Made by a program: the position numbers and the translations under genes
The notes under the pieces: model-generated
What the model was told of the DNA's origin: nothing
The model's database searches: none
What the model saw: only the letters and a program-made list of their open reading frames with translations
Assembly: GCA_040326155.1 (NCBI GenBank)
Contig: JBEQLE010000042.1
Coordinates: forward strand, 15,526-37,383
Direction: 5' to 3'
From: Leptospirales bacterium
GTDB taxonomy: Bacteria; Spirochaetota; Leptospiria; Turneriellales; JAOUFE01
DNA: 21,858 bases
Part shown: in pieces, positions 1 through 21,160 of the stretch
Layout of the letters: the number at the start of each line of letters is the position of its first letter
Numbering within the stretch: the stretch's first letter is position 1

Positions 1-138
1 AAAGATGAAACCGGAGGATTTTATTGTGAATGAAAATACCACGAAGGCAGCTGGCAAAAACGACGTTTTTTGACAGCGTAAAAACTTTAAACTATAATCG
101 AACGAAGCGACACAAAAAAACCGCAGGATTTTTTTGTG
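1..138 (+). repeat. R1 repeat cluster A (half-hairpin plus one full ~100-nt unit)
   Basis: CCGGAGGATTTT at 11; unit 36-138 is ATACCACGAAG, hairpin 1 (CAAAAACGACGTTTTTTG), ACTTTAAAC..ATCGAACGAAGCGA, then hairpin 2 CACAAAAAAA-CCGCAGG-A-TTTTTTTGTG. Same architecture as five other clusters. Confidence 0.9.
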
Positions 139-139
139 C

Positions 140-168
140 AAAAAAGAAGGCGCCCGCGTGGACGCCTT
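140..168 (-). terminator. Rho-independent terminator of the flagellin gene
   Basis: Minus strand AAGGCGUCC-ACGC-GGGCGCCUU followed by CUUUUUU, 4 nt after the flagellin stop codon. Confidence 0.8.
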
Positions 169-172
169 AGAG

Positions 173-1021
173 CTAGAGCCCTTCCAGAAGTTGTAACGCT
201 GTCTTAGACGTATGATTCGCCTGAACCAGCATCGCCGTACCACTCTGAAGCAGGATCTGTTGTTTTGTATATTCAATCAACTCTTCAGCCATATCCGTAT
301 CTCGCACGCGGCTGTCGGCAACTACCATATTCTCATAATTCGTACGAAGAGCGCCAATTGTTGTCTCCATACGGTTATAATAAGCGCCCAGATTGGCGCG
401 TTGGCGGTTGAGAGCATCGATAGCGCCATCGACCGTACCAATCATGTCGTTGGCCTCTTGCACCGTCATAACACTCTTTTTCTCACCACCTACGGTGAGG
501 CCGAGTGACTCAGAACTCATTTCCTCAACAAAGGCCCGAATCCTCTGATTCTGATTCGGCCCAACGTGAAAAAATACCGATGCAACATTCGAATCTCTGG
601 CAAGGTCTCCGTTTATCAACTTCATCCGGTTAAACTCGGCTGAAGTAGATATACGATCAACTTCGTCAATCAATTGAGAGACCTCGGTTTCCATCAATAA
701 CCTGTCCTCGGGCGAATAAATGCCGTTGGCGGCCTGAACGGACAACTCTCGAACACGTTGAAGAATATCGTTAACCTGCGATAAACTTCCCTCAGCAACC
801 TGAATAAAGGATAGGCCCATAAGCGCATTGCGCTCAGCCTGCTTTAATCCTCTAATCTGGGTACGCATCTTTTCGGAAACGGCGAGATTAGTCGCGTCGT
901 CCCCGGCTCGGTTAATGCGCATGCCGCTTGACAGTTTCTCTATGGACTTCTGAAGCCCCGATTCTGTCTTTTGCAACTGCCTGTGAGCAAATAGAGCCGA
1001 AGTATTGTGATTTACTTGCAT
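173..1021 (-). CDS. flaB: Flagellin, spirochaete periplasmic filament core protein (FlaB type), 282 aa
   Basis: N-terminal flagellin motifs (EKLSSGMRINRAGDD, SFIQVAEGSL, LQRVRELSVQAANG) and C-terminal motifs (QRANLGAYYNR, SRVRDTDMAEE). Start reassigned to ATG at 1021 (MQVNHN), preceded by SD GGGAGG; the length matches spirochaete FlaB. Confidence 0.95.
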   Translation of the reverse strand: MQVNHNTSALFAHRQLQKTESGLQKSIEKLSSGMRINRAGDDATNLAVSEKMRTQIRGLKQAERNALMGLSFIQVAEGSLSQVNDILQRVRELSVQAANGIYSPEDRLLMETEVSQLIDEVDRISTSAEFNRMKLINGDLARDSNVASVFFHVGPNQNQRIRAFVEEMSSESLGLTVGGEKKSVMTVQEANDMIGTVDGAIDALNRQRANLGAYYNRMETTIGALRTNYENMVVADSRVRDTDMAEELIEYTKQQILLQSGTAMLVQANHTSKTALQLLEGL

Positions 1022-1205
1022 ACTTTCCTCCCATATATTTAGAGAACACCGCTCAATTACGGTGCCTCCGGGAAATATCCCTTCCCAGAGTGAAAGAACT
1101 GATTCAGCATCAGCCCTTTCACTCCAGGAGTGAAAAGAAAAGTAGGCAAGAACCAAAATACCCTCTGGCATTTCGGGCAAACAGATTACCCCATTTGCGG
1201 TTATA

Positions 1206-1233
1206 TCTTCGGCCCCCGATTGCACCAACCTGA
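1206..1233 (-). promoter_or_regulatory. Putative sigma-28 (FliA) promoter of flagellin
   Basis: Minus strand TCAG-N16-GCCGAAGA resembles the TAAA-N15-GCCGATAA consensus, about 185 nt upstream of a flagellin gene. Confidence 0.5.
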
Positions 1234-1408
1234 TGCAGCCCTGGTCAAATTAAAATAACTTAAGACAAGTCTAGATACATTACAACATGGTTAGATAACT
1301 GTTTGCCGTGGTTTATCTTTTTTTGGGGATTTTTTTGAATTTAAAAGGGGCAAGCCTGCCCCTCACTTCAAACGCCCCGCGTTTTCCGCTACCCCGACGT
1401 ATTATACT

Positions 1409-1482
1409 GGCCACTGGTCTGAAATTCCCCACCAGGAAAAACCCACTTCAGCAACGCTGAAGTTTCGAGTACCGGGGGGTTG
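1409..1482 (+). repeat. R2 repeat, copy 1 (74 bp)
   Basis: 69/74 identical to 3396-3469; internal hairpins CTGGT..ACCAG and CTTCAGC-AAC-GCTGAAG; ends TACCGGGGGGTTG. Confidence 0.9.
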
Positions 1483-1499
1483 TATTTTTGCATGGAAAA

Positions 1500-1751
1500 A
1501 TACCACGAAACGGGTGTTCAAAAACCACGTTTTTTGACAGCGTAAAAACTTTAAACAATAGTCGAACGAAGCGACACAAATAAACCGCAGGATTTATTTG
1601 TGCATTAAGATAAAACCGCAGGATTTTTGTCGGCAACAAAGTATACCACGAAGCAGGTGAAAAAAAACCACGTTTTTTTTCACAAATAACTTTAAACAAA
1701 AATCGAACGAAGCGACCGTTAAAAACCGAAGGATTTTTAACGGCAACAAAG
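1500..1751 (+). repeat. R1 repeat cluster B (two full units plus half-hairpin)
   Basis: Units 1500-1602 and 1643-1743, half-hairpin 1612-1633. Hairpin-2 arms are CACAAATAAA/TTTATTTGTG and CCGTTAAAAA/TTTTTAACGG. Confidence 0.92.
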
Positions 1752-1760
1752 AAAACAAAT

Positions 1761-1789
1761 TTGACAGTGCATCATATTCTACTTAAGTT
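1761..1789 (+). promoter_or_regulatory. Putative sigma-70 promoter of hicAB
   Basis: TTGACA (1761-1766), 17-nt spacer, TAAGTT (1784-1789). The predicted start site falls about on the GTG start codon and no SD is visible. Confidence 0.45.
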
Positions 1790-1795
1790 ATCCAT

Positions 1796-2047
1796 GTGAA
1801 GGTGAATGAGCTGCTGAATAAAATCCGTAAAAATCAAAAAAACATTAAATTTTCCGACCTTCAAAAATTATTATTGTCTCTTGATTTTCAATTAAAACGG
1901 ATTTCCGGTTCCCATCATATTTATAGTCATGCAAGAATAGTGGTAGCTGTGAATATTCAACCGGATGGTCCAAATGCAAAACCATATCAAGTAAAGCAGC
2001 TTTTAAAGATTATAGAAAAATACGGCTTAAAAAGGGATGATTTATGA
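1796..2047 (+). CDS. hicA: HicA-family toxin (mRNA interferase)
   Basis: 83 aa, basic, with the signature 'IKFSDLQKLL..LDFQLKRISGSHHIY..NIQPDGPNAKPYQVKQLL' (GSH catalytic motif); ATGA overlap with the downstream antitoxin. Confidence 0.9.
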   Translation: MKVNELLNKIRKNQKNIKFSDLQKLLLSLDFQLKRISGSHHIYSHARIVVAVNIQPDGPNAKPYQVKQLLKIIEKYGLKRDDL

Positions 2048-2262
2048 ATACAAGACATTATCATATTAATATTTTCTGGAGCGAAGAAGACAACTCTTAT
2101 ATTGCAGACATTCCCGATCTGGAATATTGTTCCGCGCATGGGAAGACGCCGGAAACAGCCTTGCATGAAGCGTTAATCGCCATGGATGCCTGGCTTCAGG
2201 TTGCAGAAGAAGAAGGCAGAACTATCCCGGAACCTCGTTATCGGCCTGTTATTTATGCCTGA
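2044..2262 (+). CDS. hicB: HicB-family antitoxin (short form, no C-terminal DNA-binding domain)
   Basis: 72 aa, acidic; 'YHINIFWSEEDNSYIADIPDLEYCSAHGKTPETAL..W...G..IPEP' is the typical HicB N-terminal domain; translationally coupled to hicA. Confidence 0.92.
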   Translation: MNTRHYHINIFWSEEDNSYIADIPDLEYCSAHGKTPETALHEALIAMDAWLQVAEEEGRTIPEPRYRPVIYA

Positions 2263-2314
2263 GTAGGGCTATCCCCAATAATAAATTCACCCGCCTGCGT
2301 GAAGCACTGAGAAA

Positions 2315-2329
2315 TACCGGGGGGTTGGC
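2315..2329 (+). repeat. R2 fragment
   Basis: TACCGGGGGGTTGGC is shared with the R2 copies at 3457 and (reverse complement) 12473-12487, and lies just upstream of R1 cluster C. Confidence 0.6.
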
Positions 2330-2343
2330 GGATTGTAAAAATT

Positions 2344-2588
2344 TACACCAAAACAGGCTGGTAAAAACCACATTTTTTGACAGCTATAAACTTCAAGCAA
2401 AAATCGAATGGAGCTACTATTATACTACGACGCGAACCCCACAGAAACGACGTTTTTGGGGGATTATTAAACTTTAAACAATAATCGAACGAAGCGACCG
2501 ACAAAAACCGCAGGATTTTTGTCGGCCCTAATGGGGTTTCTGGAATTTTTAAACCTTACCATGGAGCGAGCGGGCAAAAACTACGCTC
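2344..2588 (+). repeat. R1 repeat cluster C (degenerate unit, full unit, 5' fragment)
   Basis: Degenerate unit ~2344-2416 lacking hairpin 2; full unit 2422-2525 with hairpin 2 CCGACAAAAA-CCGCAGG-A-TTTTTGTCGG; 5'-end remnant TACCATGGAGCGAG..CAAAAACTACG at ~2557-2588. Confidence 0.85.
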
Positions 2589-2711
2589 GGCAATGCAGTT
2601 GTTAAAAAAAATTGCATCCTTTTTCCTAAAAAATAGGTCAATAAGACAAATATATAACGCTAATATGTCCCGCCTGATAAAAGATACATATACTATTGAT
2701 TTACTAACTTT

Positions 2712-3299
2712 CTAAAACTCATTCCATCTGGGGTGAGGGTTGCTAAAAAGAGCCTTCTCCAATAACTTGCGATATGCGAAAAGGACATTCGACTGAAAGA
2801 CATGATGTGTCTTATCCGGATTACACCATGTATAATCGAGGTCAAGACGCGGCCCATACAACATGTGTCTGTAATCACAACCATCAAGAACATCAAGATC
2901 ATCATCCAGATCAGAGAGGTCGCAATCTTTCGCTTTTCTGACAACTTCAACAAAACTATTATAGGGTTTCATTACATCGGGCGCTTTCTCATATTCCAGG
3001 CGCCCTTGAGAATAAAAAATCAGGTTAGTATCAAACATCCCGCTTATACCGGTTGCAATTACAGGTTCCTTTGCAGGTGTATTTGACTCGTTTTCCGGGT
3101 CCCTGTCCAGATTATGAATACATTCAAAATAAATTTCTGTCGGCAAAAAGAAAAAAGTAAACATATGAAGATCGTCAAAAGCCGACTTCGCATAAAACCT
3201 GGAAATGACAAACGGAGCAAATTTAAAAAAAAGTTCTTTTAGAGGGTAAAGCCGATAAGGACCAATGTTTTTACGCATAGCTAAAATTGTTACCTGCAA
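2712..3299 (-). CDS. Hypothetical protein (start uncertain: TTG 3299 or an ATG about 20 nt downstream)
   Basis: 195-aa ORF filling the intergenic gap, with a perfect extended -10 upstream; no family recognised. Confidence 0.6.
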   Translation of the reverse strand: MQVTILAMRKNIGPYRLYPLKELFFKFAPFVISRFYAKSAFDDLHMFTFFFLPTEIYFECIHNLDRDPENESNTPAKEPVIATGISGMFDTNLIFYSQGRLEYEKAPDVMKPYNSFVEVVRKAKDCDLSDLDDDLDVLDGCDYRHMLYGPRLDLDYTWCNPDKTHHVFQSNVLFAYRKLLEKALFSNPHPRWNEF

Positions 3300-3373
3300 T
3301 GCAAATATACATATGGTGTCTTTAAAAAATTAATTTTTATCGTGAAGTTTGAACTTTGTCTTTTCGTCGGCTT

Positions 3374-3382
3374 ATTATAGCA
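3374..3382 (-). promoter_or_regulatory. Extended -10 promoter element
   Basis: Minus strand TGCTATAAT (TGnTATAAT consensus), about 75 nt upstream of the 2712-3299 ORF. Confidence 0.5.
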
Positions 3383-3395
3383 AATTCTCTGCTGA

Positions 3396-3583
3396 GGCCA
3401 CTGGTCTGAAATTCCCCACCAGAGAAAATCCGCTTCAGTAACGCTGAAGTTTCGAGTACCGGGGGGTTGGCAGAGAACGGGTGGGCGTTTACGCCCACGT
3501 GGTCGGCGCCAAGGGGGTTTGTATGTATCCCGATGGTTATATTACCACCCGCCCCCTTCCTTACACATTCGTAATTCGTAATT
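3396..3583 (+). repeat. R2 repeat, longest copy (multi-palindromic, REP/MITE-like)
   Basis: 3396-3469 matches 1409-1482; 3457-3577 matches the reverse complement of 12346-12487. Palindromes GTGGGCGT-TT-ACGCCCAC and AAGGGGG..CCCCCTT; TTCGTAA heptamer tandem at the 3' end. Confidence 0.9.
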
Positions 3584-3651
3584 TCTTATTCTCCCCTCCC
3601 CTATAGAAAACAAATTGCCGGGAAGTCTCGAATCTGATTTTTAACCCTATT

Positions 3652-5013
3652 ATGGGTGATAATAACATTATAAATGAATCGGACGAAGAGAATCCGTTTT
3701 TAATTGAAGAAGAAATTCTCAATGAACAAGAGGCTTTAGAAAAGCAGACGGATGAACCAGAAGAGGCGACAATCTCGTATGACCCCGCCAAGCTGCTTAC
3801 TCTGGAAGAAGTTCAAGAACTGGATAAGAAATATATTTTACATACATATGACAGAATGCCTGTCCATTTTGCCTATGGGTCCGGTGAGTTTTTGTATGAC
3901 TCTGAAGGAAAAGAGTATATCGATTTTCTCAGCGGAATAGCCGTTACCGGCCTCGGACATGCCCACGCCGACCTTGTCGAAGCTCTGGCACACCAGGCAG
4001 ACCTGTTGTGGCACTCTTCGAACCTGTTTCATAACCAGCAACAGGCCCAGCTGGCGCGCGCCCTTGTCGAAATAAACTTTCCCGGAAAAGTATTTTTCTC
4101 AAACTCGGGAACAGAAGCCAACGAGGCCGCTATTAAAATGTTGCGCGCCTGGGGTGAACAAAACTCGCCCACAGGGTCGTCTGAAAAGCCCCCGAAGAAT
4201 ACTATTATAGCTTTAAAAGGCAGTTTTCACGGTCGAACCTTTGGGGCCATGTCTGTGACCGGGCAGCAAAAAGTGCAAGACGGCTTTGGCAACCTGCTCT
4301 CTGAAATTCGTTTTGTGGAGCCCAACGACATTGAAGAGCTCGAAGACGCAGTTGACGACTCTCTTTGTGGTATTATACTAGAGCCCATACTTGGGGAAGG
4401 CGGAGTTTTACCGCTGGAACTCGACTTTTTTCAAAAAGCCCGCGATCTTTGCGACCAGTACAAAGGTCTGCTTGTTGCCGATGAAATTCAAACAGGAATG
4501 GGACGTACCGGAACCTACTTTGCATGGCAGCGTTATGAAATACAACCCGACATATTGACCATAGCCAAAGGACTCGGCTCAGGCTTCCCCATTGGGGCTG
4601 TTTTAGTTGCCGACCAATACTCCAATGTTCTGCAGGTTGGTTCCCATGGTTCTACGTTTGGGGGAAACCACCTCGCCACCGCTGTTGGTTATGAGGTTAT
4701 CCGTTTAATGGAAACAAATAAAGTTCTTGAGAATGTAAACGACATGCACGACTACATGATGGTATTGCTGAATAATCTTTTAAATGGGTATCCCGATAAA
4801 ATAAAAGAAATTCGTGGAGCTGGTTTATTAATTGGTATTGTCCTGAACGAAGACATTGCGGCCCGCCCCCTCATAAAAAAAGCCCTGGAGAAACGATTCA
4901 TCATTGGCCGCGCCGGCGATAACGTCATTCGACTCGCCCCTCCTTTAATTGTTCGTCCTGCGACAATCGACCGCGCCATGGAACGACTCGAAGAGCTGAT
5001 ACGCGAGATCTAA
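3652..5013 (+). CDS. argD: Acetylornithine/succinylornithine aminotransferase (class III PLP-dependent)
   Basis: Motifs YIDFLSGIAVTGLGH, FSNSGTEANEAAIK, SFHGRT, EPILGEGG, DEIQTGMGRTG, IAKGLGSGFPIGA (PLP lysine), HGSTFGGN and IRLAPPL. Confidence 0.93.
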   Translation: MGDNNIINESDEENPFLIEEEILNEQEALEKQTDEPEEATISYDPAKLLTLEEVQELDKKYILHTYDRMPVHFAYGSGEFLYDSEGKEYIDFLSGIAVTGLGHAHADLVEALAHQADLLWHSSNLFHNQQQAQLARALVEINFPGKVFFSNSGTEANEAAIKMLRAWGEQNSPTGSSEKPPKNTIIALKGSFHGRTFGAMSVTGQQKVQDGFGNLLSEIRFVEPNDIEELEDAVDDSLCGIILEPILGEGGVLPLELDFFQKARDLCDQYKGLLVADEIQTGMGRTGTYFAWQRYEIQPDILTIAKGLGSGFPIGAVLVADQYSNVLQVGSHGSTFGGNHLATAVGYEVIRLMETNKVLENVNDMHDYMMVLLNNLLNGYPDKIKEIRGAGLLIGIVLNEDIAARPLIKKALEKRFIIGRAGDNVIRLAPPLIVRPATIDRAMERLEELIREI

Positions 5014-5035
5014 GTATAATGAAGAAAGAATTTTA

Positions 5036-5215
5036 ATAAGGAAGGCAGGAAGAAAAGCAGGAAGTTAAGGAAAAGAAAGAGAAGAAGGAAAAATGTGGTC
5101 TTAAAAGATCCCCCCATAATATTTTCTCTCTTTTCTGCCTTCTTTCCCTCCTGTAAATCATGTAAATCCTGTCTAATTCTTCTCTTTTCCTTACTCTCCT
5201 TCCTGCCTTCCTTAT
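5036..5215. repeat. 180-bp purine/pyrimidine-skewed inverted-repeat element (MITE/REPIN-like)
   Basis: Perfect 17-bp terminal inverted repeat ATAAGGAAGGCAGGAAG (5036-5052) / CTTCCTGCCTTCCTTAT (5199-5215), further imperfect pairing inside, and internal TC(C/A)TGTAAA tandem repeats. Confidence 0.8.
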
Positions 5216-5284
5216 AAAGTTCCTTTTTTGTAGAACGAATAAAAAGTACTTCAAAAACCTCAATACCCACCGAAACTATATGTA

Positions 5285-5518
5285 GTGGATCTAAGTATTA
5301 AAGCCTGGAAAAAGAATGATGAGTACATTGCGGGATGTACTGAACTTGATATTTTTACTTATGGTAAGACGAAAGTTCAGGCCAGGGAACGCCTGGTTCG
5401 CGTAATACTGTTTTACGCTGAAACCGCCTCTGAAATGGGTTATAAAATTGACCCGGATGAACTTTTAGGGTCGCTTGACGTTGCTTATACCTGGCGTTCT
5501 GAACATTACGTAAATTAA
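5285..5518 (+). CDS. Orphan HicB-like (UPF0150-type) small protein
   Basis: 77 aa; 'EYIAGCTELDIFTYGKTKVQARERL..VILFY' fits the HicB N-terminal pattern (Y.A..P.L....GKT..EA); no adjacent hicA. Confidence 0.7.
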   Translation: MDLSIKAWKKNDEYIAGCTELDIFTYGKTKVQARERLVRVILFYAETASEMGYKIDPDELLGSLDVAYTWRSEHYVN

Positions 5519-5742
5519 TCTCCAATCTCCCAAAACTTTCAAGTTAACCCATATCGGACGCCGATTATAATAAAAGGTTATAATGGGCAAATATTTTAGT
5601 CTTATCATAAAAATCCTAGTATCTTTCTTTACAGGTTGTCATGAATTAATAGACTGCCTCTTTCAGAAAAATTTTGTGATTGAAATAATATACATTAAAC
5701 AATCGCCTTTTTTAAACCCTTTAATACTCACCGGAGGATCTC

Positions 5743-7698
5743 GTGGAGCTCGAACAATTACCGGAAATACAGAAAATTGTCAATATCGGAAAAGCAAACG
5801 GTGAGGTTACTTATGATGAAATAAACGACATCTTACCCGAAAAACTCATCAACTCAGATAAAATAGACGATGTTTTTATTTTATTGAATCAATATGGTAT
5901 TGAAATCGTTGAAGAGTATGATAAAAAAGCCCTTCAAAAGAATGGTCCAGAAGGCCAAGGTAAGGGAGGCTCAAAGTCAAGTATTGTTACCCTGGGTGAA
6001 CAAAAAGCCCCTAAAATTCTTTACGAAGAATTACGTAAAATGGGTTATGAACTAACGAATGAAGACGTTAAAGATGTAACAATACAAGATCTCGCTATCC
6101 TTATTATGAAAAAAGGGTATAGTCTTGATACTATGACCCAGCTTCTAAATAAGCCGGAATATCGTCCTGCTTTAAAATCGCGAAAACGCTCCGCATCAGG
6201 TTCAAGCGCCGAACCCGACGATCCGATGCGATTGTACTTAAAAGAGATCGGTAAAATATCACTTATTTCTGCCGACAAAGAAGTAGAACTGGCAAAAAGA
6301 ATTGAAGCCGGTGAAATTATAATCGAAGAAGCCGTGTTGCGCTCTTCTTTACTTCGCCACTCCTTTATTCGTTATTACAAGAAAATTGAAAATAAAACAA
6401 TGCGTATTACCGATATTTGTCGGGCCTCCAAAACGTATTACATCTCCCAAACAGAACAAGAAGAACTACGGCAAATTTACTTAAAAGAGATGACCCCGGT
6501 CATTGATATCGATAAGAAAATTCAAGAGTTTAAATCGAAACTCAAACGTTATACTCACAAAAGTAAAAAACACCAGGAAATTTGGGCAGAAATTCTAAAG
6601 CTCGAAGATAAAGCCTCGAATCACATGTTGAAAATTGGAGTCTCTCAAAAAGAGCTGCAAAAACATGTGAATAAAATTAAAAGTATGGTGTTTCGTATTA
6701 AAGAAATAAAACGCCACTTTTTGCGCCTTCGAGAAAAGTACGGCTACGATGTAAAAGCCATTAAAGGTTATAATAGATACATTGAAAAAAATGAAAACCT
6801 CGAAATTGTTGAAAAGGACATGGGTTGCAGCATTGAAGATGTTAAGAATATTATTAAAGATATTCGAAACAACGAACGAAAACTGCGACGAATGGAACAA
6901 GAGGCTGGTTCCCCTACCCTAATTATTCTTTCCTGGGGTGAAAAAATTTCACGCGGTCAACGCGAAATTGAGATGGCTAAAAAAGAGCTCATTAACGCCA
7001 ACCTGCGTCTAGTGGTTTCGATAGCAAAACGATTTGCCAACAGAGGTATGCACTTTTACGATCTTATACAAGAAGGAAATATCGGTCTCATGAGAGCCGT
7101 TGAAAAATTCGAGTACAAAAAAGGGTATAAGTTTTCTACATATGCCACCTGGTGGATTCGCCAGGCCATTACCAGGGCTATTTCAGAACAAGCCCGGACC
7201 ATACGTATTCCCTCGCACATGATCGAGCAAATTAACAAGGTCAACAGAGAAATTCGTATCTTTTTGCAAGAAACCGGTAGAGAGCCCAACGACGACGAGA
7301 TTGCCGAACGACTTGGCTGGCCACCGCAAAAAGTGAAACAAGTAAAAAATGTAGCGAAAGATCCCGTTTCATTGGAAACTCCCGTCGGTGAAGACGAAGA
7401 TTCCGAATTAGGTGACTTTATTGAGGATAAAAAGGTGGAAAGCCCCATGGCCGCCACCGCTCAGTCGATTCTTGCCGATCAGATTCGTCAGGTACTGGCG
7501 ACCCTGCCCGCGCGGGAGCAAAAAGTCATCCGTATGCGTTTTGGACTCGACGATGGATATACACACACCCTCGAAGAGGTCGGTTATGTTTTTAAAGTAA
7601 CCAGAGAGAGAATTCGACAAATTGAAGCGAAAGCTTTAAGAAGATTGCGAGCTCCGACTAGAATGCGTAAATTAAAAGATTTCCTAGATCAATCTTAA
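5743..7698 (+). CDS. rpoD: RNA polymerase primary sigma factor sigma-70
   Basis: Region 1.1 ([17 protein letters not shown]), 1.2 ([12 protein letters not shown]), region 2 ([43 protein letters not shown]), region 4 ([23 protein letters not shown]); GTG start with GGAGG SD. Confidence 0.98.
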
Positions 7699-7700
7699 CG

Positions 7701-10538: not shown

Positions 10539-10949
10539 ATACCACGAAGCGGGTTTTTAAAAACGAATTACTTCAACCAATTATCGAACGAAGCGACACA
10601 AAATAACCGAAGGATTATTTTGTGAACTAAAGATGAAACCGCAGGATTTTTTTATTATATTATACCACGAAGCGAGTTGGCTCGTCAGGTTTTCGTACGA
10701 AAAACCTGACAGACCTTGCAGCCTGACGCTGACCGCTTTCGGCTGCTACGGCCAAAACAACGTTTTTTACCAACAAATTACTTTAAACGAAAATCGAACG
10801 GAGCAATATAGAACCAGAAACGGGTTTTCAAAAACCACGCTTTTTGAAAATAAAATACTTCAAACAGAAATCGAATGAGACAACCATTAAAAACCGCAGG
10901 ATTTTTTATGGCACTAACGAAACCGCAGGATTTTTTTGTGAACTAAAGA
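10539..10949 (+). repeat. R1 repeat cluster D (three units plus two half-hairpins, one unit interrupted by an insert)
   Basis: Units 10539-10624 (hairpin 1 collapsed), 10662-10806 (interrupted at about 10681-10752) and 10813-10911; half-hairpins at 10636 and 10920. Confidence 0.92.
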
Positions 10950-12345: not shown

Positions 12346-12487
12346 GAATTACGAATGTGCAAGGAAGGGGGCGGATGGTTTTTTCCCCATCTTGAAAACC
12401 ACAAACCCCCTTGGCGCCGACCACGTGGGCGTAAACACCCACCACGTGGGCGTAAACGCCCACCCGTTCTCTGCCAACCCCCCGGTA
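12346..12487 (-). repeat. R2 repeat, inverted copy with internal 21-bp tandem duplication
   Basis: Reverse complement of 3457-3577; ACCACGTGGGCGTAAAC(A/G)CCC is duplicated at 12420-12440 and 12441-12461. Confidence 0.9.
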
Positions 12488-12545
12488 GTTCAGTTTTTAA
12501 TGTTAAGTATCACGCAGAGGTGACAACTTCTGCTGACACAGGGGG

Positions 12546-12796
12546 CGAACGAAGCTAAAAAATACCACTAAACGGGTTTTCAAAAACCACGCTTTTTGAA
12601 AACAAAATACTTTAAACGAAAATCGAATGAGACAGCCAGGATTTTTTGTGGGACTAACTAAAACCGTAGGATTTTTTTGGTATAATATACCACGAAGCAA
12701 GCAGGCAAAAACGACGTTTTTGCCTGCAGAAAACTTTAAACGATAATCGAACGAAGCAACACAAAAAAACCGTAGGATTTTTTTGTGGACTAAAAG
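12546..12796 (+). repeat. R1 repeat cluster E (two units plus half-hairpin)
   Basis: Units 12562-12651 (5' arm of hairpin 2 deleted) and 12687-12787; hairpin 1 GCAGGCAAAAACG-A-CGTTTTTGCCTGC; loops CCGTAGG. Confidence 0.92.
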
Positions 12797-12834: not shown

Positions 12835-13044
12835 ATGTCCTTCACGGTAAATATAGTTCGAGAAAAAGACGGCACTTACTCTACTAACTGTCAGAATATA
12901 CCCGGAAAAATTGGTCGAGGCAAAACTCGCAAAGAAGCTATTGAATCGATCAAAAAAATGCTGACCGCTCATATAGAAAAAACACCGGTTTCGTTGTATC
13001 TTTCCGGCGATGAAAACAGACCAAGAGTAGTGTCTGACATTTAA
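12835..13044 (+). CDS. Orphan HicB-like (UPF0150-type) small protein
   Basis: 'MSFTVNIVREKDGTYSTNCQNIPGKIGRGKTRKEAIESIKKML' matches the HicB N-terminal pattern; ATG 12835 preferred over TTG 12799; no hicA nearby. Confidence 0.75.
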   Translation: MSFTVNIVREKDGTYSTNCQNIPGKIGRGKTRKEAIESIKKMLTAHIEKTPVSLYLSGDENRPRVVSDI

Positions 13045-13276: not shown

Positions 13277-13290
13277 AGTCAAATAAATTA

Positions 13291-13854
13291 TTAATCCATA
13301 TAGATTATACTTTTGTCGGAAAGTCCGAAAAATTCGGCATCCACTTTAATATAAGTTTTTCCAGGGATAACCTCTCGAAACCGTAAGCGGGGAATTTCAA
13401 AGGCAATAATCGTATCGCCACGTTTTAAAGTGAGTTTACGAAACTTGTTTTTTTCTACGGATAAAAAAATAGTTTTACTACCCGACATAAAACTGCGATG
13501 TTTTAATATAATTTTCAGCTGCGATCCTTCGACAATTGAAAAATCATTATCGCTATTGATAAAAACTGCGTAACCCGAAACTTTACCCATACTGTAAAAC
13601 AGGCGAAGGTTTAAATCTTTTATTTTTTTATAATCATAACTATAAAATTCACGGAATTCTGCCGGGTTTAAACGTTCGCTCTTTACCGGAATATACTGCT
13701 TTACTCTCAACTCTTTGCGAAGTTCTTCAAGTTCGCTATCTGCTGCGCTTTGCGCGGAAGAGATAATAAATAAAATGCCGACAACCACAAAAAGAGTAAT
13801 AATACGCAAAGTTCGGTATACTCGATATTGATTCTCAGAAACAGATGTAAACAT
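13291..13854 (-). CDS. Hypothetical exported or membrane-anchored protein
   Basis: 187 aa; N-terminal hydrophobic segment IITLFVVVGILFIISSAQSA followed by a soluble domain. Confidence 0.75.
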   Translation of the reverse strand: MFTSVSENQYRVYRTLRIITLFVVVGILFIISSAQSAADSELEELRKELRVKQYIPVKSERLNPAEFREFYSYDYKKIKDLNLRLFYSMGKVSGYAVFINSDNDFSIVEGSQLKIILKHRSFMSGSKTIFLSVEKNKFRKLTLKRGDTIIAFEIPRLRFREVIPGKTYIKVDAEFFGLSDKSIIYMD

Positions 13855-14099
13855 CTTTCATTCTCTTTTCATTCCATGAACCGCAAAGCTTTTTTTCCCG
13901 TTTTTCCCGTTTTGCCTGAGTTGCAGCTCGATCTTAAACCTGCCTACCTCTTAAACACTTTAAAATAAATAGTTTCCAAACTGACTCGAAATTGCAATAT
14001 ATCCTGAGAAATTGTTGCCAAAATTAAATTGTTAGTATAATTTTAAATAATATATAAAATGCCTGAGATGAAAATCAAATACAAGGAAGAGTACTGCTT

Positions 14100-14633
14100 A
14101 TGAAAATTGAAAACGAAAAATTTGTTACCATTGAATATACACTGAAAAATGACGAAGGTAATGTAATCGATACCACCGAAGGTAAAGATCCTTTGCCATA
14201 TGTACATGGTACGGGTCATCTACTTGCCGGACTCGAAAATGCTCTGGAAGGTAAAGTTTCTGGAGAATCTGTTGATGTAAAGCTGGCCCCTGAACAAGGT
14301 TATGGCGCAGTTTTAGAAGATAGAATTTTTGATGTACCAAAGTCAGATATGGAAAGCATCGAAAACCTGAAAGAAGGCATGACGCTTCACGCCCAGACGC
14401 CAAACGGTGTTGAAACATTTATAATTTTACAGATCGGTGATGAAACTATTAAAGTGGACGGCAACCACCCCCTCGCAGGACAAAACCTCCATTTTGCAGT
14501 CACTGTAAGTGAAGTTCGGGATGCTACTGAAAAAGAGCTGAAACCGGACCACGAATGTGGATGTGGCGATAACGAACACGGAGAAAAACATGAAAAGGGA
14601 GGCAAATGTAACGAGGAAAGTTGCACTTGCTAA
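14100..14633 (+). CDS. slyD: FKBP-type peptidyl-prolyl isomerase SlyD
   Basis: 'VTIEYTLKNDEGNVIDTT..PLPYVHG..LLAGLENALEG', 'VDGNHPLAGQNLHF.V.V..VRDAT..E', and a His/Cys-rich C-terminal tail. Confidence 0.95.
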   Translation: MKIENEKFVTIEYTLKNDEGNVIDTTEGKDPLPYVHGTGHLLAGLENALEGKVSGESVDVKLAPEQGYGAVLEDRIFDVPKSDMESIENLKEGMTLHAQTPNGVETFIILQIGDETIKVDGNHPLAGQNLHFAVTVSEVRDATEKELKPDHECGCGDNEHGEKHEKGGKCNEESCTC

Positions 14634-14648
14634 TCATATAAAGTTTTA

Positions 14649-15863
14649 ATGAAAACTTCACCCGATCTAAATCCATACCGGTTAACATCGGGTGAAAAAC
14701 GTATCGCAATTGCTCTTGCCTTCATTCAGTTTACCCACATAACAGACTTTATTATATTAATGCCATTAGGGCCGACGTTATCGAAACTATTCAATATCGA
14801 TAACTCAGAATTTTCCTACCTCGTATCCTCTTATATGCTGAGTGCAGGGTTTACAGCTCTGGCAGGTTCTTTTTTTATAGATCGTTTTAATCGAAAAAAA
14901 TCCCTGTTGTTTATATTTATGGGGTTTCTAATTGGAACTTTTTTTTGCGGGCTTTCAAATTCTTTTTCGATGCTCCTGGTTTCCCGAATGATCACAGGCG
15001 CATTTGGCGGGTTATTAAACGCATTAATTTTCTCTATGATCGGCGATGCTTTTGCTTATGAAAAAAGAGGAGCAGCCACCGGAGTTATAATGGCGGCCTT
15101 TTCTGCGGCGTCCGTAGCTGGAATTCCAATCTCCCTGGAAATTGCCAACAGAATAAAATGGAACACGCCCTTTTTTGTTTTGACGGCTCTGGGCACCTTA
15201 ATTGCCATATACACTTTATACGCTATACCCAGTACAAAGAAGGTGATTGCAAAACATAGCATTAAGGACATCGTTGTTGTAAAAAGCCATTATACCGCAT
15301 TTTTCCTGACCATGACTATTATGATTGCAGGTTTTTCTCTGATACCTTATTTAAGTAATTATCTGGTGTTTAATACTGTTTTTACTGAACAAGAACTGCC
15401 TCTTATGTACTTTTTCGGAGGTGGGGCTACATTTTTTTCAGCCAGGCTAATAGGGTATCTTGCCGATCGATTCGGGAAAAAGAAGACTTTTTATTTAATC
15501 GCGGGTTTATCGGTCATTCCTTTTTATGCAATCAGCCGACTTGATGATCTGCCTGCATGGATGATCTTTGTCATTACTACTATATTTTTTATTCTGGTTT
15601 CGGGGCGTCTTGTACCTGCAATGGCTCTTTTAACTTCAAGCGTTAAAAATAATTTGCGCGGCGCTTTTATGACTACGAATACCGCCATTCAACAATTCTC
15701 TTCAGCCGGAGCCATGTTAGTTGCGGGAGCAATTATCACCAGCGACGCCAATAATGTAATAAGCGGATTCGAAACGGTCTCCTACCTTTCGATACTTGCG
15801 AACTGCTTAAGTATCTATTTTGTATATCGCTTGAAAGTAGTAAAAGAACCAAAGAGGCTTTAA
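14649..15863 (+). CDS. Major facilitator superfamily transporter (drug/H+ antiporter-like)
   Basis: 404 aa, about 12 hydrophobic segments, MFS motif A twice (GSFFIDRFNRK, GYLADRFGKKK). Confidence 0.93.
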   Translation: MKTSPDLNPYRLTSGEKRIAIALAFIQFTHITDFIILMPLGPTLSKLFNIDNSEFSYLVSSYMLSAGFTALAGSFFIDRFNRKKSLLFIFMGFLIGTFFCGLSNSFSMLLVSRMITGAFGGLLNALIFSMIGDAFAYEKRGAATGVIMAAFSAASVAGIPISLEIANRIKWNTPFFVLTALGTLIAIYTLYAIPSTKKVIAKHSIKDIVVVKSHYTAFFLTMTIMIAGFSLIPYLSNYLVFNTVFTEQELPLMYFFGGGATFFSARLIGYLADRFGKKKTFYLIAGLSVIPFYAISRLDDLPAWMIFVITTIFFILVSGRLVPAMALLTSSVKNNLRGAFMTTNTAIQQFSSAGAMLVAGAIITSDANNVISGFETVSYLSILANCLSIYFVYRLKVVKEPKRL

Positions 15864-15885
15864 TCGATTCAAAACCGAATATACT

Positions 15886-16731
15886 TTACTGCCCCATAAA
15901 AGAGTACAACATTTTAATTTCTTCAGGCCAGAGATCACTATCGCTGGTTTCTAAAATCAATGGTATATTATTAAAGCGAGAATCTGTCATGATGTACTTA
16001 AAGGCAGTTAAACCAATTTCGCCGGTGCCCAGTGGAGCATGTCGATCTTTTTTCGATTCAAACGGAACTTTGGAATCATTTAAGTGCATCCCTTTTAAAT
16101 ATGAAAACCCGATTATTTCATCAAATAGTCGAAACGTTTTTTCACACGTTTCTTTGTCACGCAAGTCATAGCCTGCGGCAAAAATATGAGCAGTATCTAT
16201 GCACACCCCAATGCGCGACTTATCAGAAATTTTATCAATAATAAAAGCCAGGTGTTCGAACTGGTAGCCAAGGTTGGAACCCTGCCCGGCGGTTGTTTCA
16301 ATTACGGCAATTACACCGGGAACCTCATTAATCGCAATTTCAATCGATTCAACGACACGGCGTAACGCCTCTTCTTCCGTATATTTTTTTAAATGAGAAC
16401 CGGGGTGAAAGTTTAAAAGGGTAATGCCCAGTTTTGCACACCGATCCATTTCATCGATAAAAGCCATTCTAGATTTATCCAGCCCTTCGGTTTCCGGATG
16501 AGCCAGATTTATTAAATAACTGTCATGAGCTAGAATGTGTTCGAATTTCAACCCAGATTGGTCCATATTCGTTCGAAAAAGTTCGATGTTTTCATCTGTT
16601 AGTGGTTTTGCATTCCACTGCCTCTGATTTTTGGAGAACAAGGCAAATGCTTTAGCCCCTATTTTAGAGGCATTTAAAGGAGCATTTTCCACTCCCCCGG
16701 CGGTACTGACATGAGCTCCCGCATATTTCAT
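15886..16731 (-). CDS. nfo: Endonuclease IV (AP endonuclease)
   Basis: [13 protein letters not shown] start, [50 protein letters not shown]. Start reassigned to ATG 16731 (16743 also possible). Confidence 0.96.
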
Positions 16732-16982
16732 ATGGTGTTTCATATAGCCTGCTAACAAATAGCTTATGAGTCGAAAAGGCGATTTTTTCATGTAATGGTT
16801 GACAACATGTAGCGATGAGGAAACGTTTTACATAATCGTCAAAAATAAAAAAAAGAACTATTATATAATAAGAATAGTCAAACAAGCGCCTCAAGACTTA
16901 GTTGATAACCAAAGTGAATCGTTTGTTTATGCATTGATTTTCTCGGAGTAGCTATTTAATAATTAAAAAATACCTGACAGTT

Positions 16983-18185
16983 TTGAATAAACTGCAAGAT
17001 AGTGGAAAGTTTAAACTCATGTGGGATTATATTAAACAATTAATCGGTATTTACTCAGCCTTCTTTCATGGAGCGGCCGAAAACCGTGAATTTGTCAACG
17101 ATTATCAGTATCATAATTTTCATCGGATGAGAATTGTTTTTCCGATCGTTCTAATTATGACAACCATTTCTCTGGTTTATGCATTTCAAAATGGTCCGTC
17201 CTTAAGTTATTTGAGCCCGCTTCAATGGTTTGAAATTATTGTAAAATCGACCCTTGTATCACTGTTATTCATATACCATATTTTAGTCCACGTTAACCCT
17301 TTTCCTAAGCCGGAAAGAATGAAGCCGATGCATATTTTTTTAAACCGGTGGGGAATTCTGGTGGTTATGTTTTTATTCAGCTTAACTTCGGCAATAGAGG
17401 CTATAGAACATGGAACTATAACTATTTATATTGCCTGCATTTTAGTGGTATCCATGACGATTCAAATTCAAAATATTTTCAGTTTCCTGTTTTTCACAAT
17501 CAATCTGGTCGGGTTGGCGTTGACTGTTTATCTCTTTTCCGAAGAAAAGTCTGACGTTATTCGGTTTTTCTTGAGTGCTTCTGCTTTTACTATTATCGCC
17601 TGGATTATTTCTAGATTTCACTATTACCGAACGATGGATATTTTTACTAAAAATTTAATTATTCAAAAGCAAAAAAAGACCCTGGAACTACTTGCCTCTC
17701 GCGATACTCTGACCGGGGTATTAAACAGGGCAAAATTTGACAGAGTAGCAGAACAGGCGATTGAAATTGCCAATCGGTATAATCGGGAGCTCTCCCTTAT
17801 AATGCTCGACCTTGATCATTTTAAAAGTATAAACGATAATTATGGTCACAGTATGGGAGATGAAATTTTAATTATAATCTCTGGACTTCTTTCGGCTAGC
17901 CATCGAAGAAGCGACACTCTGTTTCGGTGGGGCGGAGAAGAGTTTATTATACTGGCTCCTGAAACCGGTAAAAAGACAGCGATTGAACTCTCCGAGCGAA
18001 TACTTAAAATTGTCGATGAACAGACCTATCCCAAAGAGATTCATATGACAATCAGCATTGGAGTCGGCGTTCACGAACCAGGCGACTCCGTCGATACTTT
18101 ATTAAACAAAGCCGACAAAGCGTTGTATGTAGCCAAAGACAAAGGACGCAACCGAATGGAAATTTACCAGGGTGATATTCTTTAA
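16983..18185 (+). CDS. Membrane-bound diguanylate cyclase
   Basis: About six N-terminal TM segments; DTLTGVLNR, DLDHFKSINDNYGH..GD, RRSD inhibitory site, intact RWGGEEF, ADKALY.AK..GRN. The start may be ATG 17019. Confidence 0.95.
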   Translation: MNKLQDSGKFKLMWDYIKQLIGIYSAFFHGAAENREFVNDYQYHNFHRMRIVFPIVLIMTTISLVYAFQNGPSLSYLSPLQWFEIIVKSTLVSLLFIYHILVHVNPFPKPERMKPMHIFLNRWGILVVMFLFSLTSAIEAIEHGTITIYIACILVVSMTIQIQNIFSFLFFTINLVGLALTVYLFSEEKSDVIRFFLSASAFTIIAWIISRFHYYRTMDIFTKNLIIQKQKKTLELLASRDTLTGVLNRAKFDRVAEQAIEIANRYNRELSLIMLDLDHFKSINDNYGHSMGDEILIIISGLLSASHRRSDTLFRWGGEEFIILAPETGKKTAIELSERILKIVDEQTYPKEIHMTISIGVGVHEPGDSVDTLLNKADKALYVAKDKGRNRMEIYQGDIL

Positions 18186-20836
18186 AGTTTTTTCAATTTA
18201 ATTGCATTACTAATTGCATAGGCCTTATTTACAATCTCTCGATTGGGTAAAGCAAGTCCCTCTTCGTGTTTTATCAATTCGTCATAATATTTCGAAACCT
18301 CGAACTTACTGGAAGCCAGAAATCGTTTTGGAAAATAAAAATTATCATTTCCTACTCGAATCGATGTAAAATTCTTAGAAAACTCTTTGGCATTCTGGTT
18401 GGCAAAAACGGCCAACGCACCCTCTTCCAGTTTTAAATAGTCCTCAAGATCTGCCCCTGTCATAGGAAACAAGTTTGAACCGGAAAATTTCTTTTTAGCT
18501 AAATACTTTTCGGTTAAATCTTTGGTGAGTGTCTGGGCGGTTTGTAATATACGCTGTTCGGGAGAGCCGGCTTTTGCCGCTTTCGGTTTTTGCCCTTTTT
18601 TTGATTTCTTCTCTTTTACAGGTTTTTTCTTTCTGCTGAATAGTTTACGTTTTGGTTTTTTATCATCTTTTGAATAACTCTCCAGGCTTGGTTTTGAAAA
18701 TACGGCAGACTCTTCTTGCTTCCCTTTAAAGGCTCCCTCTTTGCCAGATTTTCCGTCAGCTTTCGACGCGGTCCTTTTTTTCTCTGCCTCATCTCTCATT
18801 TTATCTTCGTATCGAACTTTATCCATATTGGATTCAGAGTAGGTTTTCGATTTAGCGCGGCAGTACTCTACCATATCTTTAGAGCCGTATAAAGTCCCTT
18901 CTTGTTCCATCTCTTCTCGAATGCTGTTATATATAATCGGGTAATCTTTTATATCTTTCGGGCAATACGTTTTACGGGTAAATTTTCGTCCCTGGCTGTC
19001 AGTTCCTGTAGGCAACGGACCATCATAGACATCTTCAATCAAAGAGGCATGCATAAATGGCTCAAGGTCAGCCATAACCGCCTCCTCCCCTTTTCCGGAA
19101 TATTGTGGAAACTCGGGATTATTTTTAATTTTACGAGCCGCAGTTCTCATTCGAGATTTATATTCAATTTCATTTATATGTTTCGCTGAAGGAGACGCGT
19201 CGGGGAAAACAAATTCCATTACGGTTTTTATCAGTTTTTGTTTTTCAGTCTCTTCTTTACTCTCTTTCGCTCCGCCCTGTTTTGCGCCTTCGGTTTCAGT
19301 TTTTATTCCTGATGCGATAAAAGATTCCAGTTTACTTTTACGATAGGCAAACCCCAGATTTTTTATTTCGCTTGTAAACGTTTTTTCAATGAACTTTTTC
19401 TTTCTAAAGAAAAGACTGCGCAGCAAATAAAGCAGGGGGTTTATAAATAAAAATACAACTTCTTTCTTTCTTTTATAAAGTTGCTGTTGATAAAAACTTT
19501 TTGCGCTTAAACCACTTTTGTTTAAGATCTCTTCTAGTATACTCAACTCAAAAAAGTTGGCAGTTTCAAGAACCCGTTTTACGGAATTAAGCTCAATAAT
19601 GCAATAATGGTCTTCTTCGAGACCCAGAGAAACACCTGTTTTGCGAATACCCAAAATTCCGTCTATGTCAAGAGCAGTGTCAAAAATTTCACTGGAATAA
19701 AACGTGGATGGTATAAACATTAACCACTGGCGACTTTTTATTCTACGCAATAAAAGTGCCAGCTTTTTTTTCTTCTCCGCTTCTTTCGTCTCTTTTTTCT
19801 GTCGTAGGATTTGTTCGGCAGTCTCTTTCATCAAGAAAACTTCAAGCGCGCATTGCCTGTACATATCATCTTGTCGATAGTGGTTTAACACAGTTTCAGC
19901 AATCGTTTTATACCCTTCCGGACTCTTATTCGTCTCAAACGCTTTAAGCGCCGTTCGTAAGGCATATACTGCGTTTTTTTTAAGACCGTTTTCTTCATAT
20001 GTTTTGTATATTTTCTTGGCTATATGTAATACCAGCTTGCTCATGTACTCATAACGGTAGAGAATATCTTTGGTATCGTTTAATAGTATTATTGGTTCAC
20101 TTTGAATTTCATCTTCTTCTAAAACCCTGGGTATCTCAAGGTAAAGAAGGTCATCTCTTCCTTTTAAATATGGATAAATACGATCTTGAAGAATACGGGT
20201 TGACTCGGAATTTTCATCCTGAGAATCGAATTTAAAAAAACCCTGAAAATAAATGTCTGCTTTAATTCCTTCTTTTATTGTTTTTGCTAAAAATTCTAGA
20301 TAGCTCTCTTTATCGGACCAGGGTAACGATATTGCCGCTTTATCGACTATATAAATAGCGCTCATTTCATCGCTTTTTTTTACAACTTTTTCAATATCGT
20401 CATCGCCTGCAATATATACCGGCTTTAAAGCCAGTTCACCTTCTTCAAATACCGCCGCATAATATTTTTTTATAAGTGGTAGATGAGCGGAAGCTGCATT
20501 GCTCAGGTAATCGAAAATATCATCAAGGTGGTCTATTTTTCTTTTTATTCTGACCAGCTCATTTTCCAGCTCTCTACGAGTCGGTAAATTATTGCGAAAA
20601 GAGCTTAAAAATGTATTTGTGCCTTTCGCCAGAAACTGGTACACAAATTGAATTCCCTGCAGGTTTTGCTTGGGGCTATATGCCTGGTCAAGAGGATCGA
20701 GATGTTGAAGTGCCTGTCTTTCGGTAACGAGTCGTTCTAACACAGGATCATCAGAATTCGCATTTACTTCATCAAAAGCAACTGTTGCGTCTTCATCTTC
20801 TTGTTTTTCATGCTCGGAAGTTGTATCGTCTGTCAA
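18182..20836 (-). CDS. Large hypothetical protein (884 aa)
   Basis: Long ORF, TTG start with GGAG SD; acidic N-terminus, predicted coiled coils, one hydrophobic/amphipathic segment and a Lys-rich linker. Confidence 0.88.
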   Translation of the reverse strand: MTDDTTSEHEKQEDEDATVAFDEVNANSDDPVLERLVTERQALQHLDPLDQAYSPKQNLQGIQFVYQFLAKGTNTFLSSFRNNLPTRRELENELVRIKRKIDHLDDIFDYLSNAASAHLPLIKKYYAAVFEEGELALKPVYIAGDDDIEKVVKKSDEMSAIYIVDKAAISLPWSDKESYLEFLAKTIKEGIKADIYFQGFFKFDSQDENSESTRILQDRIYPYLKGRDDLLYLEIPRVLEEDEIQSEPIILLNDTKDILYRYEYMSKLVLHIAKKIYKTYEENGLKKNAVYALRTALKAFETNKSPEGYKTIAETVLNHYRQDDMYRQCALEVFLMKETAEQILRQKKETKEAEKKKKLALLLRRIKSRQWLMFIPSTFYSSEIFDTALDIDGILGIRKTGVSLGLEEDHYCIIELNSVKRVLETANFFELSILEEILNKSGLSAKSFYQQQLYKRKKEVVFLFINPLLYLLRSLFFRKKKFIEKTFTSEIKNLGFAYRKSKLESFIASGIKTETEGAKQGGAKESKEETEKQKLIKTVMEFVFPDASPSAKHINEIEYKSRMRTAARKIKNNPEFPQYSGKGEEAVMADLEPFMHASLIEDVYDGPLPTGTDSQGRKFTRKTYCPKDIKDYPIIYNSIREEMEQEGTLYGSKDMVEYCRAKSKTYSESNMDKVRYEDKMRDEAEKKRTASKADGKSGKEGAFKGKQEESAVFSKPSLESYSKDDKKPKRKLFSRKKKPVKEKKSKKGQKPKAAKAGSPEQRILQTAQTLTKDLTEKYLAKKKFSGSNLFPMTGADLEDYLKLEEGALAVFANQNAKEFSKNFTSIRVGNDNFYFPKRFLASSKFEVSKYYDELIKHEEGLALPNREIVNKAYAISNAIKLKKL

Positions 20837-20935
20837 TTTTCTACTCCAGAACTTATAATAAATATATCATAATAGGTTGTCACTTCTAAAATTAAATAAG
20901 TATTCGTAGACAAATGGGTCAAGTCCTATTTCCGA

Positions 20936-21010
20936 CCAGGAACGCAAGGAAAAAGATTGATGAGGAAAGCAGGAAAACAGGAATCCACGAAGGCACAAAG
21001 CTCACGAAGG
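20936..21010 (+). repeat. Purine-rich short tandem repeats
   Basis: Repeated (C/A/G)AGGAA followed by three 9-nt-period CAC(G/A)AAG units (CCACGAAG-GCACAAAG-CTCACGAAG). Confidence 0.65.
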
Positions 21011-21030
21011 GAAAATGTTAATACTGCGAG

Positions 21031-21160
21031 TATCGAACGAAGCGAGAAAAATCCTACGAAGCGAGTTGGTAAAAACGACGTTTTTTACCAACAAAGTACT
21101 TTAAACGAATATCGAACGAAGCAGCATAAAAAAACCGCAGGATTTTTTTGTGAATTAAAG
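21031..21160 (+). repeat. R1 repeat cluster F
   Basis: Extra TATCGAACGAAGCGA at 21031, then unit 21051-21152 with hairpin 1 GTTGGTAAAAACG-A-CGTTTTTTACCAAC and hairpin 2 CATAAAAAAA-CCGCAGG-A-TTTTTTTGTG. Confidence 0.92.

Follow-up and report, generated by a model that had tools for sequence, protein, structure and literature searches.

A report on the REP/BIME/REPIN repeats and their TnpA-REP (RAYT) proteins calls the spread of small repeats that lack terminal inverted repeats and target duplications poorly understood (Corneloup et al. 2021, PMC8266576). For the NTS/SRM repeats, together with the Ssn GIY-YIG single-strand nucleases, a role in fixing where transforming DNA ends has been proposed (Chenal et al. 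2025, PMC11893778). We analyzed a 21,858-nucleotide (nt) stretch of DNA from a Leptospirales bacterium (GenBank assembly GCA_040326155.1, contig JBEQLE010000042.1, positions 15,526 to 37,383), hereafter the window, in which an earlier reading made from the letters alone (the sequence-only reading) had noticed an abundant intergenic repeat with two hairpins, here called R1. The genome studied, G000, comprises 4.26 Mb in 171 contigs, is 94.7% complete, and has an assembly broken by multicopy elements; the window is part of its contig C108 (C-numbers are contigs of G000, and L-numbers are numbered loci, metagenome loci of a sister species among them). We propose, with about an even chance of being right, that R1, a polar repeat, is non-autonomous, works in the form of folded single-stranded DNA, and spreads by traveling with DNA that cells import from other strains.

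Results

Full R1 units are polar and 105 to 113 nt long, a correction to the roughly 100 nt first estimated for this repeat, and they consist, in order, of a 5' motif with a GNA triplet, two bases, hairpin 1, a linker, hairpin 2, and an A-rich tail. Hairpin 1 has an 11-bp stem and a 6-nt loop, C(C/G)ACG(C/T), which had been read as C(G/C)ACG; the linker combines a variable spacer, 5 nt long in the aligned units (previously 4 to 5), with a second GNA triplet; and hairpin 2 has a 10-bp stem and the loop CC-GNA-GG-A. The 3' tail reads CTAA in 45 and TTAA in 14 of 81 cases, which gives a fairly constant 3' end. Pairing within the stems is 71 to 100% and drops to 19% and 7% at the next position outside, so that both stems stop sharply, at 11 and 10 bp. 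Perfect arms fall into 34 types for hairpin 1 (109 copies) and 14 types for hairpin 2 (110 copies), and both sides change in 19 of 27 stem pairs; slid registers pair only 42 to 56%. In the named structure, 96.3% of 1526 cells were paired compared to 82.8% after shuffling, and 0 of 500 shuffles reached the observed level, a result that is not a probability given that the structure scored was itself derived from the scored copies. R1 copies share ancestry, so the covariation figures and p-values are overstated, and arm covariation could arise in part by arm-to-arm copying and is alone no proof of selection. The unpaired linkers are more than 90% conserved across two species that are ~80% identical in genes, the AGGA of the hairpin-2 loop is invariant in 59 of 59 units, and the central position of the hairpin-2 triplet is unconstrained (C 50, A 45, T 5, G 2). 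The linker pattern has 84 matches in the 4.26-Mb genome compared to 0 in 2 Mb of order-3 Markov sequence. The earlier claims that structure and not arm sequence is maintained, and that linkers and loops are conserved in sequence, both held. In four copies, hairpin 1 combines arms of two known types, so R1 copies recombine in the shared hairpin-1 loop, and modules of other repeat families have been spliced into R1 clusters at short shared words.

A profile search of G000 found 125 R1 units in 95 clusters on 54 contigs, 70 of them nearly full length, with a complete 3' end in 73 clusters and a complete 5' end in 52. The arrays run head-to-tail (a single orientation in 69 of 71 motif clusters), and only one cluster with a long unit lies inside an open frame of at least 120 codons. 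Other multicopy sequence is touched by 37 to 39% of R1 clusters, about fivefold more than the 8% of control gene flanks. Replication-strand bias was not significant (19 of 51 clusters on the positive-skew strand, p 0.09). Two hairpins present in R1 clusters derive from a dispersed element of ~280 nt (L128, L136, and many contig ends), for which Rfam gave no match at L128 or L136.

R1 is known from G000 and one sister species and is genus-restricted. As the sequence-only reading had advised, we built a covariance model (from 59 units) and compared orthologous loci for empty sites. Over 121 genomes of the class, with 31 candidates scored per genome, the model found R1 in G000 only. The linker pattern had 4 matches in 185,579 species genomes, none with hairpins; viral contigs gave 2 chance matches only, and plasmid and phage collections gave none. 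BLAST over 41 genomes returned two R1 matches of 25 to 33 nt outside G000. A metagenome scan yielded 43 loci, of which 39 carry R1 (the hairpin-less L084, L095, L101, and L104 were dropped), and the R1 loci that share genes with G000 are ~75 to 85% identical to it, representing a sister species. Among 14 spacers syntenic on both sides, R1 was present in the sister only at 11 and in both species at 3; the 11 have no R1 profile match in G000, and two of them keep a short remnant visible by eye. Judging from these spacers, R1 is mobile, being gained or lost at orthologous positions. Terminal inverted repeats were not found (best 3 to 7 of 10 matches in 59 units), nor was a short target duplication, with a longest common flank word of 4.55 nt compared to 4.47 in shuffled pairs (38 full clusters). 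A GTAG guide was seen at the 5' foot of hairpin 1 in 0 of 59 units and near hairpin 2 in 5 of 59, only as a linker variant. Rfam models run on the window and 15 loci to E=1 gave only sub-threshold eukaryotic miRNA and snoRNA matches, and R1 remains without a named family, as first stated. We found no published description of R1, or of allelic duplications at a repeat end, in a search that did not reach most subscription journals, supplements, or ISfinder.

The flanks were compared for 93 R1 clusters with both flanks available (G000 and the sister species), at a score of at least 32, which is reached by 0.1% of shuffled pairs. Nine of the 93 clusters attained this score, one through a match internal to R1, leaving eight with a direct duplication of host sequence (C80, C81, and C116 in G000; L065, L070, L075, L106, and L107 in the sister). 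In each of these scars, a stretch of 21 to 130 nt of host DNA that lies upstream of R1 recurs on its downstream side, and this downstream copy, the orphan, starts 0, 2, 6, 7, 7, 9, 9, and 12 nt past the base of hairpin 2 within the 160 to 450 nt searched. The orphan copies begin at an A- or purine-rich word, and the joints are blurred by A-rich microhomology. In the seven cases with coding sequence (L075 was left out), the copy pairs differ at 28 synonymous versus 6 nonsynonymous codons, where 22% synonymous is expected (p about 2e-13), and 29 of 38 changes fall at third positions. Given that a decayed target duplication would change at random, the duplicated copies are alleles of different lineages and not target duplications. 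At L106, the import stops at R1 and does not include the gene found next to R1, on its 3' side, in the orthologous locus of G000. Both duplicated copies are at most 92% identical to the G000 orthologue, so the donors are other lineages. Because donor and recipient alleles differ, the eight insertion events show both the homology side and the foreign joint. At C171 and C145, too, R1 ends are fused to gene fragments. An orphan-fragment screen on both flanks was noisy and used for examples only. To explain the scar as an assembly chimera, one would still have to assume that the R1-orphan junction exists and that it arose repeatedly in independent assemblies.

Three R1 motifs are GNA triloops, and in two of them the closing pair switches from C-G to T-A. 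The closing pair of the 5'-motif triplet (n=107) is C-G in 70, T-A in 13, T-G in 7, and C-A in 7; that of the linker triplet (n=163) is C-G in 131, T-A in 11, T-G in 7, and C-A in 2; and the apical pair of hairpin 1 (n=117) is C-G in 109 and T-A in 5. Triloops of the d(GNA) type closed by C-G are described as very stable DNA hairpins (PMC3201870). The switch to T-A favors folded single-stranded DNA over RNA, and the + strand is the one on which we favor R1 acting in this form. The sequence-only reading had left open a noncoding RNA or a single-stranded DNA mobile repeat; triloop covariation and presence or absence between species speak for the latter, and the noncoding RNA is disfavored.

The trans-acting partner that had been placed outside the window did not emerge from the families searched in G000: PF01797 (Y1 HUH transposase), IS91 transposase, DUF559 nuclease, and the relaxases PF03432, PF08751, PF02486, PF03389, and PF01076 were not found (the MOBH and MOBC families were not searched). 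A broken RAYT-like fragment (L110, G000:C89:540-960) lies beside a REP-type palindrome unrelated to R1. There are two GIY-YIG matches, with R1 absent from the 1.5 kb around the short one, two reverse transcriptase matches, neither near R1 clusters, and four tyrosine recombinases. No nuclease-like frame was conspicuous among the listed open frames of the sister loci, as judged by BLAST against G000 frames alone. A four-helix-bundle candidate was not borne out in the search, and a GxxExxY gene (L115, G000:C126:27698-28042) belongs to its own repeat. The latter gene is flanked in inverted orientation by an abundant purine/pyrimidine-rich repeat, resembling a nuclease-repeat pair, and this repeat also adjoins many R1 clusters and occurs in the window at about 20955-21012. 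The only coupling-protein-like gene (L160, G000:C121:121-1419) is isolated; an insertion-sequence-like frame follows it, and there is no conjugation cluster nearby.

A 187-residue gene family is enriched beside R1 and is also multicopy where R1 is absent. Of its 28 loci in G000 (G000:C96:17867-18430 and 27 others), 4 have an R1 3' end at most 300 nt upstream on the same strand, compared to 29 of 3445 genes, and a family gene or fragment occurs at 6 of 39 sister R1 loci against 0.7 expected. The structural model of the family (pLDDT 82) is a tandem ribbon-helix-helix whose nearest structural match is a chain from the F-plasmid relaxosome (Z 10.9, root mean square deviation 3.2, 104 aligned) that we take to be TraY. 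The family has no Pfam family of its own and no nuclease domain, and the fold is common. A DUF1564 identity was rejected, with no PF07600 match in G000 at E<=1 and DUF1564 absent among the families listed (25 of 28) for 103 members. Across the order, the family is dispersed in 23 of 34 genomes, with up to about 30 copies in each; leaving G000 aside, it is multicopy in 22 of 33, none of which has R1, and 20 loci in one of them (G001) share no flanking repeat. R1 also sits inside a family gene (L076). The family is probably a fellow traveler or at most a binding partner of R1. Its genes have a conserved A-tract/T-tract leader, and G000 holds a recent subfamily of 85 to 95% identity, several copies of which are bounded by an 11-nt inverted word.

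Within the window, the covariance model gave 11 matches at E<1e-4, all on the + strand, 6 of which are in the training set (Table 1). All clusters named in the sequence-only reading are present on this strand, and the arm pairs that it quoted can all be read in the sequence. The copy at 10662 kept its assignment for the 5' motif only, its hairpins coming from a different repeat family. In the unit at 36..145, the -35 element falls in the right arm of hairpin 1. A HicA/HicB pair (1796-2262) is enclosed by two R1 clusters, and a lone HicB-like gene (12835-13044) follows a third. A 74-nt direct repeat (93% identical; 1409-1482 and 3396-3469) encloses the block R1-hicAB-R1-open frame in the manner of a cassette boundary, and related pieces lie at 2280-2332 and 12470-12495.

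Table 1. R1 units and fragments in the window (positions within the window)
Position	Strand	Feature	Basis or detail
1..32	+	3' end of an R1 unit starting before the window, partial hairpin 2	
36..145	+	Full R1 unit, imperfect hairpin-1 arms; 3' tail abuts terminator-like end of convergent flagellin gene; covariance model match	
70..98	+	Perfect sigma70 consensus inside the 36..145 unit	-35 at 70-75, 17-nt spacer, -10 at 93-98
1500..1609	+	Full R1 unit, chimeric hairpin 1 (left arm of one type, right arm of another)	Covariance model
1610..1640	+	Partial extra hairpin 2	
1643..1750	+	Full R1 unit, both stems perfect	Covariance model; DNA folding z -5.7
2343..2421	+	R1 unit without hairpin 2	Covariance model
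2422..2532	+	Full R1 unit	Covariance model
10539..10631	+	R1 unit, hairpin 1 collapsed by deletion; begins 2 nt past the stop of the upstream gene	Covariance model
10632..10655	+	Partial extra hairpin 2	
10662..10742	+	R1 5' motif fused to two hairpins of another dispersed repeat family of G000	
10743..10810	+	Right half of hairpin 1 and linker	Covariance model
10811..10946	+	Full R1 unit (model match 10811-10918) and extra hairpin 2	Covariance model
12562..12686	+	R1 unit, broken hairpin 2, and partial extra hairpin 2	Covariance model
12687..12794	+	Full R1 unit, both stems perfect	Covariance model; DNA folding z -6.4
21027..21046	+	Linker fragment ahead of the last unit	
21051..21159	+	Full R1 unit	Covariance model

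Discussion

In the mechanism that we propose, an incoming single strand would be cut or trimmed to end a few bases past hairpin 2, either by a structure-specific nuclease or through the hairpin itself stopping an exonuclease. The upstream flank of the import would pair with the matching gene of the recipient by ordinary homologous recombination, and the A-rich R1 tail would be joined at a short microhomology, that is, by homology-facilitated illegitimate recombination (HFIR). A joint inside the anchor gene would produce an allelic duplication and leave the end of the recipient gene as an orphan; otherwise, the spacer would simply be replaced. New sites could be reached when another dispersed repeat acts as the anchor. 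The simplest history of the scar would be a single import, in which the donor gene end and R1 entered by homology upstream and the tail was joined in the recipient gene. Within this mechanism, we infer the step that shortens the strand, by cutting or by trimming, and any part that the 5' half of R1 may play. Natural transformation is the most likely import route, given that comEC and dprA are present in G000.

Several observations weigh against import as the explanation. The scar occurs at eight clusters only, none of them in the window, and the remaining clusters say nothing about mechanism; in two mirror cases (C83 and C131), the orphan lies 5' of R1. Similar short host duplications flank two other repeat families (G000:C119:13275-13444 and C22:70410-70588), so the scar may be a habit of G000 that is not special to R1, and the duplicated junctions were read in assemblies. 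The genes comEC and dprA are also present in three relatives without R1, and a nuclease tied to R1 was not found in the families searched. Import leaves the conservation of the 5' motif, hairpin 1, and the linker unexplained. With regard to the folded strand, G-T exceeds A-C on the + strand over distinct arm pairs (9:3 and 14:7, or 23 versus 10 in total), a bias that speaks for that strand but is weak (p 0.15 and 0.19 per hairpin), and on the other strand the hairpin-2 loop reads as an RNA cUNCGg tetraloop. A more specific version of the import reading, in which R1 is the target of an undescribed single-strand-processing system that ends imported DNA at the repeat and thereby drives R1 into empty alleles, seems to us unlikely. 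This would be homing without a transposase, and recognition might then fall to the TraY-like tandem ribbon-helix-helix protein as a subunit of the system.

We considered that R1 could instead be a REP/IS200-type substrate moved as single-stranded DNA by an HUH transposase outside the assembly, with the allelic duplications as side products. Strand-specific imperfect hairpins with a bulged base are given as the targets of TnpA-REP (PMC8266576), the R1 3' end is fairly constant and in 7 of 81 clusters provides a convergent open frame of at least 100 codons with its stop codon, and the fragmentation of G000 at multicopy elements also suits an enzyme missing from the contigs. We nevertheless find this doubtful, given that PF01797 had no match, the sole RAYT-like fragment, itself broken, belongs to another palindrome, the GTAG guide is missing from hairpin 1, the arrays are head-to-tail, and the joints vary over 12 nt. 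We hold it to be quite unlikely that R1 is an RNA or a portable promoter, either a short transcript that shows AGGA to CsrA-type proteins or a cUNCGg fold of the other strand, even though the sigma70 consensus is matched at 10 or more of 12 positions in 21 of 122 R1 units (background, 0.08% of non-coding positions), three of the six perfect sigma70 consensus promoters in G000 non-coding DNA lie within R1, and the loop AGGA never varies. A similar sponge role is discussed in the report on TwoAYGGAY (10.64898/2026.09.22.753630). However, the usual promoter-like spacer is 16 nt, G occupies the first -10 position in 82 of 169, and a same-strand gene lies ahead of 5 of 15 promoter-like clusters compared to 24 of 46 other clusters; convergent gene ends are not preferred either (13 of 65 versus a background of 16%). 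These gene-orientation counts leave R1 unsupported as a promoter of neighbor genes or as a terminator, and the T-A triloop variants destroy the UNCG reading in two motifs, with Rfam giving no match.

In an origin of transfer (oriT), a hairpin is followed by a nick a few bases 3' of it. R1 could fit this layout, and one could imagine a chromosomal oriT-like site that a visiting relaxase nicks just 3' of hairpin 2, with transferred strands then ending in R1 and the TraY-like protein as an accessory factor, given the match of that family to the F relaxosome chain and its enrichment beside R1. This is improbable in our view: the five relaxase families were not found, the coupling-protein-like gene stands isolated, and the ribbon-helix-helix family, whose fold is common and carries no nuclease domain, is multicopy in genomes without R1, shares no flanking repeat at its G001 loci, and in one case has R1 inside it. 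The least probable explanation, to which we give hardly any weight, is that R1 has neither partner nor function, its arms being kept paired by template switching while copies drift with other repeats. The 34 perfect hairpin-1 arm types do form a network in which 20 of 33 links are single steps, as arm-to-arm copying would give, and 34 of 109 hairpin-1 copies have at least 2 mismatches. The sharp ends of the stems and the conservation of the unpaired linkers across two species argue otherwise, and template switching leaves unexplained both the isolated one-pair covariation at the triloop closure and the fixed side of the joint.

That repeats fix where imported DNA ends has been proposed for NTS-Ssn as a general idea, and the footprints left by R1 make of it a concrete, testable prediction. 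If the more specific version with a single-strand-processing system is true, the same principle could explain the spread of other orphan REP-like repeats.

Collectively, R1 is a new family that is confined to one genus and whose general kind is familiar. It behaves like NTS/SRM or REP repeats, and its missing GTAG guide and head-to-tail arrays set it apart from REP. The NTS/SRM repeats of the Ssn nucleases are described as oriented, clustered, lineage-specific hairpin repeats, as R1 is, and the two share conserved non-palindromic flanks, found here for R1, and an action on single-stranded DNA, which for R1 we infer (PMC11893778). R1 differs in being four times longer, with two variable stems and no sequence likeness; a repeat-flanked GIY-YIG gene was not seen for R1 (in 1.5 kb around one of two matches), and we found no counterpart of the allelic-duplication scar in the portion of the NTS/SRM report drawn on here. 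In common with the REP/BIME/REPIN repeats, as these are described (PMC8266576), R1 is intergenic, of high copy number, and arranged in mosaic clusters, with imperfect bulged hairpins and no target duplication. Unlike them, R1 has no GTAG guide, is tandem and not inverted, has AT-rich stems of free sequence, and does not prefer gene 3' ends, and no cognate transposase was found for it in the 94.7%-complete assembly.

Other described repeats share some traits with R1. BOX and other modular MITE-like repeats form tandem modular arrays and are species-restricted and folded according to Delihas (2011, PMC3184786), whereas R1 lacks terminal inverted repeats, a target duplication, and an identified insertion-sequence partner. 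TwoAYGGAY (Rfam RF01731) is likewise described as multicopy and variable in copy number, with GGA in the loop (10.64898/2026.09.22.753630), whereas R1 has no match to its model, one AGGA loop, and tandem units in place of divergent doublets; the hairpins spliced into R1 clusters come from the 280-nt element, which is possibly related to TwoAYGGAY. In contrast to integron attC sites, R1 joints are spread over 12 nt with no precise crossover (the core boxes of attC lay outside the comparison). A single fixed nick 3' of the hairpin, as in oriT, may or may not lie behind joints that fall at 0 to 12 nt and are blurred by A-rich microhomology. The closest process is HFIR, described in transformable bacteria as combining one homologous anchor with a short illegitimate joint (PMC6382021), which is also the make-up of the R1 scar, and the eight allelic duplications show the HFIR product pattern, as a footprint only. 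HFIR, however, is a process and not an element family; the joints of R1 concentrate at a single end of a structured repeat, where they are observed as footprints of natural events.

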